Positions 7,044 through 8,033 of a stretch of DNA of 64,000 bases are shown here, piece after piece. The stretch's first letter is position 1, and each line of letters starts with the position of its first letter. The position numbers and the translations under genes were made by a program. Origin of the DNA: Escherichia coli (GTDB lineage Bacteria > Pseudomonadota > Gammaproteobacteria > Enterobacterales > Enterobacteriaceae); the NCBI RefSeq assembly GCF_003334255.1, contig NZ_QOWU01000019.1; one strand, 5' to 3'. The notes beneath the pieces are model-generated. The model was not told where the DNA came from. It searched no databases and worked only from the letters and a program-made list of their open reading frames with translations.

Positions 7044-7217
7044 GATGTTAACTCCGAAAAGTAGCCCCCAGAGTAGCCCCCAAAATTATATTGATGATCA
7101 TGGAGGATGGTTTACGTCCAGAGTAAAAGAATTTATGATAATACCTTATTTTAAAGTGAGTTAAAGGGGGTGGAGAGAGTTCTGTTGAAATCAGTGGAAA
7201 TAAACAGGGCTTAATAA

Positions 7218-8033
7218 ATCCTCCCCGACGGGGAGTGCTGGCTGGAACGCCTGCAACTGGCAAAAACGTTGGGCTTCGATTTTGTCGAGATGTCGGTAGA
7301 TGAAACGGACGAGCGCCTGTCGCGCCTCGACTGGAGCCGCGAGCAGCGTCTGGCGCTGGTGAACGCGATTGTTGAAACCGGCGTGCGCGTGCCGTCCATG
7401 TGCCTTTCTGCTCATCGTCGTTTCCCGCTGGGCAGTGAAGATGACGCGGTGCGGGCGCAGGGGCTGGAGATTATGCGTAAAGCTATCCAGTTCGCCCAGG
7501 ATGTCGGTATTCGCGTGATCCAACTGGCGGGCTATGACGTTTACTATCAGGAAGCCAATAACGAAACGCGTCGTCGTTTCCGTGACGGCCTGAAAGAGAG
7601 CGTTGAGATGGCAAGCCGCGCGCAGGTGACGCTGGCGATGGAGATCATGGATTACCCATTGATGAACTCCATCAGCAAGGCGCTGGGCTACGCGCACTAT
7701 CTCAACAACCCGTGGTTCCAGCTCTACCCGGATATCGGCAACCTCTCGGCGTGGGACAACGACGTGCAGATGGAGTTGCAGGCCGGAATCGGGCATATCG
7801 TCGCGGTACATGTGAAAGACACCAAACCGGGCGTCTTCAAAAACGTGCCGTTTGGCGAAGGCGTGGTGGATTTCGAACGTTGTTTCGAAACGCTCAAACA
7901 GAGTGGCTATTGCGGGCCGTACCTGATTGAGATGTGGAGCGAAACGGCGGAAGACCCGGCGGCAGAAGTGGCGAAAGCGCGTGATTGGGTGAAAGCGCGC
8001 ATGGCGAAAGCGGGCATGGTGGAGGCGGCATAA
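7218..8033 (+). pseudogene. ulaE: ulaE (L-ribulose-5-phosphate 3-epimerase), 5'-truncated; lacks about the first 18 codons and a native start
   Basis: In-frame homology begins at [24 protein letters not shown] right after a stop at 7215-7217; the track ORF at 7269 starts on a TTG. Confidence 0.7.

Follow-up and report, generated by a model that had tools for sequence, protein, structure and literature searches.

The 64,000-nt stretch of Escherichia coli DNA examined here (contig NZ_QOWU01000019.1 of assembly GCF_003334255.1; the window, with positions numbered from its first letter) raises the question of how AT-rich DNA headed by an integrase gene comes to run straight into ulaE, a gene of the ascorbate-utilisation (ula) operon, and what has become of that operon. 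Our answer is that positions 7044-8033 very probably represent the right attachment site (attR) end of a horizontally acquired genomic (pathogenicity) island, put into codons 15-19 of ulaE by a P4-type integrase. The element displays traits by which genomic islands are recognised, namely an integrase at its attR end, a flanking 14-bp repeat (the copy at the left attachment site, attL, being known from relatives) and, with 64 carriers among 5426 complete E. coli genomes, absence from most of the species.

The boundary was mapped by megablast of positions 6900-7600 against these 5426 genomes. In ordinary genomes, homology to ulaE sets in at query base 322, corresponding to window position 7221 (Leu15); 14 codons are missing from the remnant, the ulaE start lying 42 nt before the onset of homology in a K-12-like genome. 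An earlier note on this DNA, made from the sequence alone, had proposed an island boundary inside ulaE, and this is borne out by the genome comparison. The note had placed the onset at about 7218, some 18 codons into the protein: its abruptness, directly after an in-frame stop, holds, the position is corrected to 7221, and the figure of about 18 codons corresponds to where the duplicated core described below comes to an end (codon 19). Between the tandem stops TAA TAA and the first base of ulaE homology stands an island-derived ATC (7218-7220). The right junction in the window reads ...TTAATAAATC CTCCCCGACGGGGA GTGCTGG..., and uninterrupted, K-12-like ulaE reads GCG CTCCCCGCCGGGGAG TGCTGG. Guanine-plus-cytosine (GC) content is 0.41 in 7001-7200 versus 0.595 in 7201-7400, in agreement with the earlier description of the upstream sequence as AT-rich island DNA.

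The whole query was matched in 64 of the 5426 genomes, with no complete genome at 100% identity across the junction, and the canonical ulaE 5' end was found in 5360 of the 5424 genomes having ulaE. These counts bear on the alternative that no foreign DNA is involved and that ulaE occurs naturally in an allele with a divergent 5' end. An annotation of the remnant as an intact gene, discussed below, is all that speaks for such a variant; opposed to it, in addition to the prevalence of the canonical end, are the two in-frame stops upstream, in a sequence continuous with the integrase arm and gene, and the presence of the true ulaE 5' end (nt 1-56) at the other end of the island, fused to island DNA. 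The last of these observations refutes the variant, to which we assign next to no probability.

Closer inspection of the junction identified a palindrome, CTCCCCGACGGGGAG, as the attR core. In uninterrupted K-12 ulaE the core forms a perfect 7+1+7 palindrome, and in phylogroup-B2 alleles a 6+3+6 palindrome, as in the empty target of the B2 strain APEC O1, CTCCCCGCTGGGGAG. Read in the ulaE frame, its residues at codons 15-19 are Leu-Pro-Ala-Gly-Glu. The sequence CTCCCCNNNGGGGAG occurs once in the window versus 0 expected, and the degenerate form CTCCCC-N3-GGGGAG likewise once in 64 kb and in none of 100 shuffles. A simple scan scored the core palindrome and the GATTTATTAA that comes after it, both read on the minus strand, as terminator-like, which is probably incidental.

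The other end of the island was found in the closest genome, G1/2, where 27.6 kb of comparable sequence shows 7 single-nucleotide polymorphisms (SNPs) relative to the window. Here the left junction reads ...GAAAAAGCG CTCCCCGCCGGGGA TGAACTTAATC..., and the same 14-mer adjoins intact ulaD-C-B-A together with the divergent ulaG and ulaR, so that the search for ulaA-D and for the left end of the island, called for in the earlier note, was met by a near-identical genome. A 14-bp direct repeat, corresponding to ulaE nt 43-56, is present at both attL and attR in G1/2, O111:H8, GN06667 and CFSAN061770, and zero bases of ulaE were lost on insertion. The 14-bp duplication combined with the retention of every ulaE base is the signature of conservative site-specific integration. 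We propose that the integrase recombined the core of the island's own attachment site (attP) with a near-identical palindrome, CTCCCCGCCGGGGA(G), in ulaE codons 15-19, which would have duplicated the 14-bp core and left ulaA-D with ulaE nt 1-56 at attL, and ulaE nt 43-855 with ulaF at attR. Judging from the core form common to the ula and gln sites (see below), inverted CTCCCC/GGGGAG half-sites are likely what integrases of this clade recognise, and ulaE codons 15-19 happen to spell them.

Integration at the 3' end of a tRNA or tmRNA gene is typical of this integrase family, if not universal; the target here is instead ulaE nt 43-56. ARAGORN predicted no tRNA or tmRNA in the whole 64-kb window, and Rfam returned no significant RNA family at or near the junction. 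The remark that no tRNA-like attachment site is visible therefore holds as regards tRNA, and an attachment site does exist in the form of the 14/15-bp palindrome within ulaE. Elsewhere in the window (9369-9453, 29252-29374 and 32726-32905) we found RNAs of the core genome, comprising the RpsF leader and the small RNAs ES239, STnc450 and ES036, which are unrelated to the junction.

Extending the comparison to both ends of the island, the right and the left junction were each found in exactly 64 of the 5426 complete genomes. Since an identical junction recurs in 64 complete genomes, the window is not chimeric at this point, a possibility that the earlier note had named as a ground for refutation. 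The carriers derive from humans, pigs, cattle, chickens, deer and water. Spacing, strand and presence of ulaD were tabulated for the 60 carriers among the matches listed. In 58 of these 60 the junctions are collinear and 38-131 kb apart (median 62 kb). In the other two (NZ_AP045179.1 and NZ_CP095505.1) the junctions are 112 and 131 kb apart and attL lies on one strand and attR on the other, evidence of an inversion that has one of its endpoints within the island. All 60 have ulaD and the first 56 nt of ulaE at the left junction, showing that the upstream ula genes, previously presumed either displaced or deleted, have been displaced and not deleted. Furthermore, over the 500 nt on the island side of the right junction the window has 1 and 0 mismatches to GN06667 and O111:H8, respectively, versus 19 and 9 over the 500 nt on the ulaE side. 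This sharp step in divergence points to the spread of one element into diverged chromosomal backgrounds and speaks against the 64 carriers being one clone with identical flanks.

A junction of this kind might also arise without site-specific recombination, through deletion mediated by an insertion sequence (IS), illegitimate recombination or chimerism in assembly. These islands are rich in IS elements, and the two carriers with attL and attR on opposite strands demonstrate that rearrangements do occur in the region. Such an origin is nevertheless exceedingly improbable given a junction that is base-identical in 64 genomes from diverse hosts and backgrounds, the 14-bp direct repeat flanking an insertion at which ulaE lost nothing, the adjoining integrase with conserved arm repeats at both ends of the island, and a sister integrase that occupies a second site with the same palindromic core (see below).

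The integrase itself combines an N-terminal arm-binding domain (PF13356, Arm-DNA-bind_3; E = 3.9e-26), a central domain (PF22022, Phage_int_M; 3.9e-25) and a catalytic domain (PF00589, Phage_integrase; 8.9e-19), and aligns with the integrase of phage P4 over its full length at 35% identity (E = 4e-75), confirming its previous assignment to the P4 type. The catalytic R..HxxR..H..Y motifs, aligned to P4, are VRTGELR, HGFRH, LAHVD and RGTYNH. A score of 254.7 bits against the NCBIfam model PRK09692, below the cutoff of 434, places the protein outside that specific subfamily. It is annotated as WP_001131670.1 in G1/2, Eco889 and GN06667. No phage could be named as its source, the closest phage integrases (IntS type) being at most 42% identical, and no Vis/AlpA-type excisionase was identified in the examined part of the island.

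Between the integrase gene (int) and the core lies island DNA containing a tandem repeat, TAGCCCCCA-GAG-TAGCCCCCA. The repeat had been recorded before as a plain tandem repeat; the most fitting reading is a pair of P4-type arm sites, and the pair recurs at the other end of the island. In the 64-kb window TAGCCCCCA has 2 copies only (0.26 expected), and at least 2 copies appeared in 5 of 100 shuffles, so that the count is modest evidence taken alone. The pair near int is invariant, however, in a diverged element at the ulaE site (CFSAN061770, whose integrase is 90% and arms 85-87% identical) as well as in a relative inserted in the gln operon. A second pair, ATAGCCCCCAAT(A/G)TAGCCCCCA, lies 61-81 nt past the core at the other island end and is kept even in CFSAN061770, where the DNA between core and pair is unrelated. 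Across 91 kb of G1/2 sequence the motif is confined to these two terminal pairs. Because the repeats are conserved in diverged relatives and match the annotated arm repeats of P4, they are most likely P4-type arm-binding sites of the integrase. The pairs would bind its N-terminal arm-binding domain and bridge the arms to the core, as in phage P4, and, because they lie within the int leader, they may also autoregulate int.

A k-mer comparison revealed further short motifs common to both arms: CATGGAGG, which is conserved in the attR and attL alignments, TATATTGA, and the 11-mer TCTGTTGAAAT, which is invariant in all five attR sequences aligned and may be a site for an accessory factor or for the integrase. 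Coordinates of these and the other features of the locus are collected in Table 1. A scan of some 100,000 species-representative genomes for TAGCCCCCA-N3-TAGCCCCCA was uninformative on the distribution of the family, yielding 24 hits where by our own estimate roughly 9 were expected; the hits fell in unrelated phyla, several in coding repeats, with 0 in Enterobacterales and 1 beside a related integrase. This one hit, in a metagenome-assembled genome of Flavipsychrobacter (Bacteroidota; locus L034, 9866-10147), has two sets of paired GGGGGCT(A/T) ahead of a 31%-identical integrase, in the same orientation as in the window, and suggests that GCCCCC-type arm sites are perhaps widely conserved among Arm-DNA-bind_3 integrases; the remaining 23 hits resemble chance matches.

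Table 1. Features at the right end of the island and in the adjoining ula genes (window coordinates).
Feature	Position	Strand	Description
Island integrase gene (int)	5862-7043	-	393 aa; tyrosine recombinase of the P4 type; direction of transcription into the island, away from ulaE
Integrase-proximal att arm	7044-7220		177 nt; P arm of the inferred attP; AT-rich island DNA; int 5' untranslated region and promoter region
Tandem TAGCCCCCA-GAG-TAGCCCCCA	7062-7070, 7074-7082	+	Candidate arm-type integrase sites, 19-39 nt upstream of the int ATG
CATGGAGG	7099-7106	+	Short motif common to both arms
TCTGTTGAAAT	7181-7191	+	11-mer common to both arms
TAA TAA	7212-7217	+	In-frame stops, island-derived, directly upstream of the ulaE remnant
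attR core CTCCCCGACGGGGAG, CTCCCCG(C/A)CGGGGAG	7221-7235		First 14 nt duplicated at both island ends
ulaE' remnant	7221-8033	+	Codons 15-284 plus stop; without start codon or ribosome-binding site
Private C>A substitution	7228	+	Central core base; Ala17Asp in the ulaE frame
ulaF	8033-8719	+	Intact, 228 aa; overlaps the ulaE stop (TAATG); annotated ulaF in relatives

The central base of the core distinguishes the window from its relatives, the C>A change at 7228 being the sole difference from G1/2 within 6900-7600. We considered the A as a crossover marker derived from attP and rejected this, as other carriers have C, or the T of the host allele, in both cores. In the alignments the other carriers have C at this position, and the A, found in none of the complete E. 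coli genomes searched, is accordingly read as a recent substitution private to the window. In lambda-type systems the central position of the core belongs to the overlap region, and recombination is inhibited there by heterology of the partner sites. We speculate that, if attL retains C, the substitution could create a mismatch between attL and attR in the overlap and so impair excision.

Some points weigh against an island end at this position, or against the loss of function that we draw from it. The window holds attR only, and the attL and ulaA-D of this genome are supplied from near-identical genomes. At attL the step in divergence between island and chromosome is weak. For the gln-site island of E. 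coli GF60, glnP was not reached in more than 100 kb, so that the core was seen at one junction. Finally, a plus-strand sigma-70-like site at 7111-7139, with 9/12 matches, could drive ulaE'-ulaF.

The last point concerns the functional state of the remnant. The first in-frame starts in ulaE' are TTG 7269 (codon 31) and ATG 7290 (codon 38), both without a Shine-Dalgarno sequence, and no ATG, GTG or TTG was found upstream of codon 31 in this frame. The translated remnant scores 493 bits against TIGR00542 (cutoff 272), covering profile positions 12-278, and 485 bits against NF009688 (UlaE, L-ribulose-5-phosphate 3-epimerase; cutoff 317). As a UlaE coding sequence it is incomplete, the profile match beginning at position 12 with the start codon and N-terminal segment gone; the segment ahead of position 12 would, by the topology of the triosephosphate isomerase (TIM) barrel, be the first beta-strand. 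Because the start codon, the ribosome-binding site and 14 codons are lost, we infer that ulaE is inactivated. In contrast to ulaE', ulaF matches NF009003 from position 1 to 228 of 228 (507 bits) and has a GGAGG Shine-Dalgarno sequence at 8021-8025, 7 nt ahead of its ATG; with these features, any transcript that extended into ulaF could be translated there.

Whether a transcript does so depends on what lies upstream. The genes ulaABCDEF form one operon with a promoter upstream of ulaA, from which ulaE'-ulaF would now be separated by tens of kilobases, and its expression is presumably lost. The adjacent island gene, int, points the other way, so that ulaE' has no co-directional island gene reading into it. 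A promoter and terminator scan of 6800-8900 returned counts at chance level (2 promoter-like sites against 1.9 expected); among the promoter-like sites, one on the minus strand, 7164-7135, faces int, with the site count not above chance. The operon had been described as reduced to a promoterless ulaE'-ulaF. A truncated ulaE' followed by an intact ulaF is indeed what the window contains, and the pair is probably promoterless; the operon as a whole has been split rather than reduced, as ulaA-D, ulaG and ulaR are intact with a promoter of their own.

Alternatively, the island might repair the gene it enters, in the manner of the SXT elements considered below, by supplying a promoter and a new start from which a shorter UlaE (271 aa, from the ATC at 7218) and UlaF are made. 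This would accord with the annotation of a non-pseudogene ulaE from this ATC in carriers, with scores of ulaE' well above the UlaE model cutoffs, with a reading frame that is open in all carriers examined, and with the plus-strand promoter-like site at 7111-7139. We nonetheless consider repair very unlikely. ATC is a very rare initiator and here follows TAA TAA without a Shine-Dalgarno sequence, promoter-like sites are not above chance (2 versus 1.9 expected), and the conserved N-terminus is missing, the UlaE profile being matched from position 12; an open frame is equally expected after a recent insertion.

Inactivation of ulaE by the insertion remains the preferred interpretation, and we regard the annotation that favours repair as an artefact. 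In carriers, the Prokaryotic Genome Annotation Pipeline (PGAP) calls ulaE' (7218-8033 in the window) an intact 271-aa UlaE starting from the ATC right after TAA TAA, in accordance with the high score of ulaE' against the UlaE model. The other fragment, consisting of ulaE codons 1-19 and island DNA, is called a 67-aa hypothetical protein. In relatives these fragments lie, for example, at 20319-21134 of locus L001 (ulaE') and 31208-31411 of locus L003 (the 67-aa fragment), and neither is flagged as a pseudogene in most carriers examined.

With regard to metabolism, carriers should still import ascorbate and convert it to L-xylulose-5-phosphate, and the ula pathway is very probably interrupted thereafter. 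UlaE and UlaF have paralogues in SgbU and SgbE, which the yiaK-S operon encodes, and the steps from L-xylulose-5-phosphate to D-xylulose-5-phosphate, needed for anaerobic ascorbate use, would rest on these sgbU/sgbE paralogues, if at all. A literature search on the phenotypes of ulaE mutants yielded nothing for E. coli. A bolder proposal, which we rate as improbable, is that in a sub-clade of P4-type integrases tRNA targets were given up in favour of CTCCCC-N3-GGGGAG and that the island acts as a reversible switch of ascorbate catabolism ('active lysogeny'), locked in the window by the C>A change at 7228. Were the switch real, precise excision would restore ulaE exactly; were the sub-clade real, each of its insertions would split a nutrient-utilisation operon (ulaE; glnH-glnP).

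The cargo of the island was surveyed in the window and in G1/2. The G1/2 island spans about 51 kb with the integrase as its last gene, and carries a UhpA/UhpB/UhpC-like regulatory set, an ATP-binding cassette (ABC) transporter, iha, hlyCABD, lutABC and many IS fragments; the annotation of the 51 kb includes no pap genes. Relatives carry iha, hlyCABD and daaE at positions beyond the window. Clear AT-richness is confined to the int and arm region (5600-7200), at 36-47% GC; cargo at 1-5579 has 43-62%, near that of the core genome. On the minus strand, this cargo encodes a UhpA-like response regulator, a UhpB-like histidine kinase with a MASE1 domain, a UhpC-like sensor and an ABC transporter (binding protein and permease), among which UhpC alone reaches an equivalog cutoff. 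By gene content, positions 1-5579 look like an accessory module for sensing and uptake of sugar phosphates, with a transporter that may resemble AfuABC. Outside the island, the segment at about 10400-19900, from downstream of rplI to the TetR-regulator gene and ytfB, is variable among strains: the window and G1/2 have an oxidoreductase/CoA-transferase cluster together with a tripartite ATP-independent periplasmic (TRAP) transporter, in K-12 the place is occupied by yjfZ and a truncated TetR gene, and Eco889 has HipA/helix-turn-helix genes and a major facilitator superfamily transporter replacing the TRAP genes.

Several aspects of this locus have precedent. The ula (ulaD-ulaE) and gln (glnP-glnH) operons have been described as integration sites of islands with site-specific integrases, the ula site being rare relative to the pheV and pheU sites, and the missing tRNA target, unusual for this class of integrase, is already documented at the ula site (Biggel et al. 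2020, Nat Commun, PMC7686366). The islands of papGII+ uropathogenic E. coli in that study resemble ours in the ulaD-ulaE site, the flanking site-specific integrase and the mosaic of variable cargo (PMC7686366), and differ in that the papGII operon defines the set, whereas the G1/2-type island is without annotated pap genes. In the main text of PMC7686366 we found neither the core palindrome and its sharing between ula and gln sites, nor the P4-like arm sites, nor the misannotation. With the insertion site already known, the anatomy of core and arms and the misannotation are small increments within a well-understood mechanism; their value lies mostly in annotation and interpretation, and the current understanding of genomic islands is unchanged. 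Together, the 14-bp palindromic core, the pairs of P4-like GCCCCCA arm sites and the same-core sister at glnH-glnP provide a signature with which this island family can be searched for, and the att anatomy offers a testable reason why a P4-type integrase uses a site other than a tRNA gene.

The closest mechanistic parallel is P4 itself (NC_001609), with which the island shares, besides a three-domain integrase at 35% full-length identity, an xxGCCCCCA motif, a 12-nt phasing, orientation and geometry. The P4 GenBank record annotates 'attP arm sequence repeats', GATGCCCCCAAT and TATGCCCCCAAT, 16-39 nt upstream of int, with far arm repeats TATGCCCCCTTT and TGTGCCCCCACT 54-77 nt past the core, which is itself about 150 nt from int. 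The corresponding distances for the island in the window are 19-39 nt for the pair near int, 61-81 nt for the far pair and about 178 nt for the core. P4 inserts at the 3' end of the leuX tRNA gene without disrupting the tRNA. Unlike P4, the island enters a protein-coding gene, ulaE, at a palindrome in its 5' part and would thereby inactivate it.

The sister element at the gln site (E. coli GF60; WP_072648864.1) has an integrase 82-83% identical to that of the window, with a nearly invariant arm-binding domain. It has the same TAGCCCCCA pair, arm layout and CTCCCC-N3-GGGGAG core, and also splits an operon. It differs in targeting an intergenic hairpin between glnH and glnP, and in the three central bases and the flanks of the core: the junction in this relative reads ATC CTCCCCAGAGGGGAG AGGG, and the empty site in K-12 is CTCTCCCCATAGGGGAGAG, containing CTCCCCATAGGGGAG. 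The gln-operon integration site (K-12 glnH-glnP intergenic region, locus L013, 2150-2190; also locus L004, 7334-7348) lies in a longer perfect hairpin, CCTCTCCCC-ATA-GGGGAGAGG, beside a GC-rich repeat-like sequence, and insertion there separates glnH from glnPQ.

A last point of comparison is with integration into the 5' end of genes. Elements of the SXT/R391 type, as reportedly described by Hochhut and Waldor in 1999, insert in the 5' end of prfC, supply a new promoter and 5' coding end, and leave prfC functional. The island described here resembles them in that a tyrosine integrase directs it to a protein-coding gene, near the 5' end, and not to a tRNA gene; unlike SXT, it contributes two stop codons and no start to the gene that it enters.

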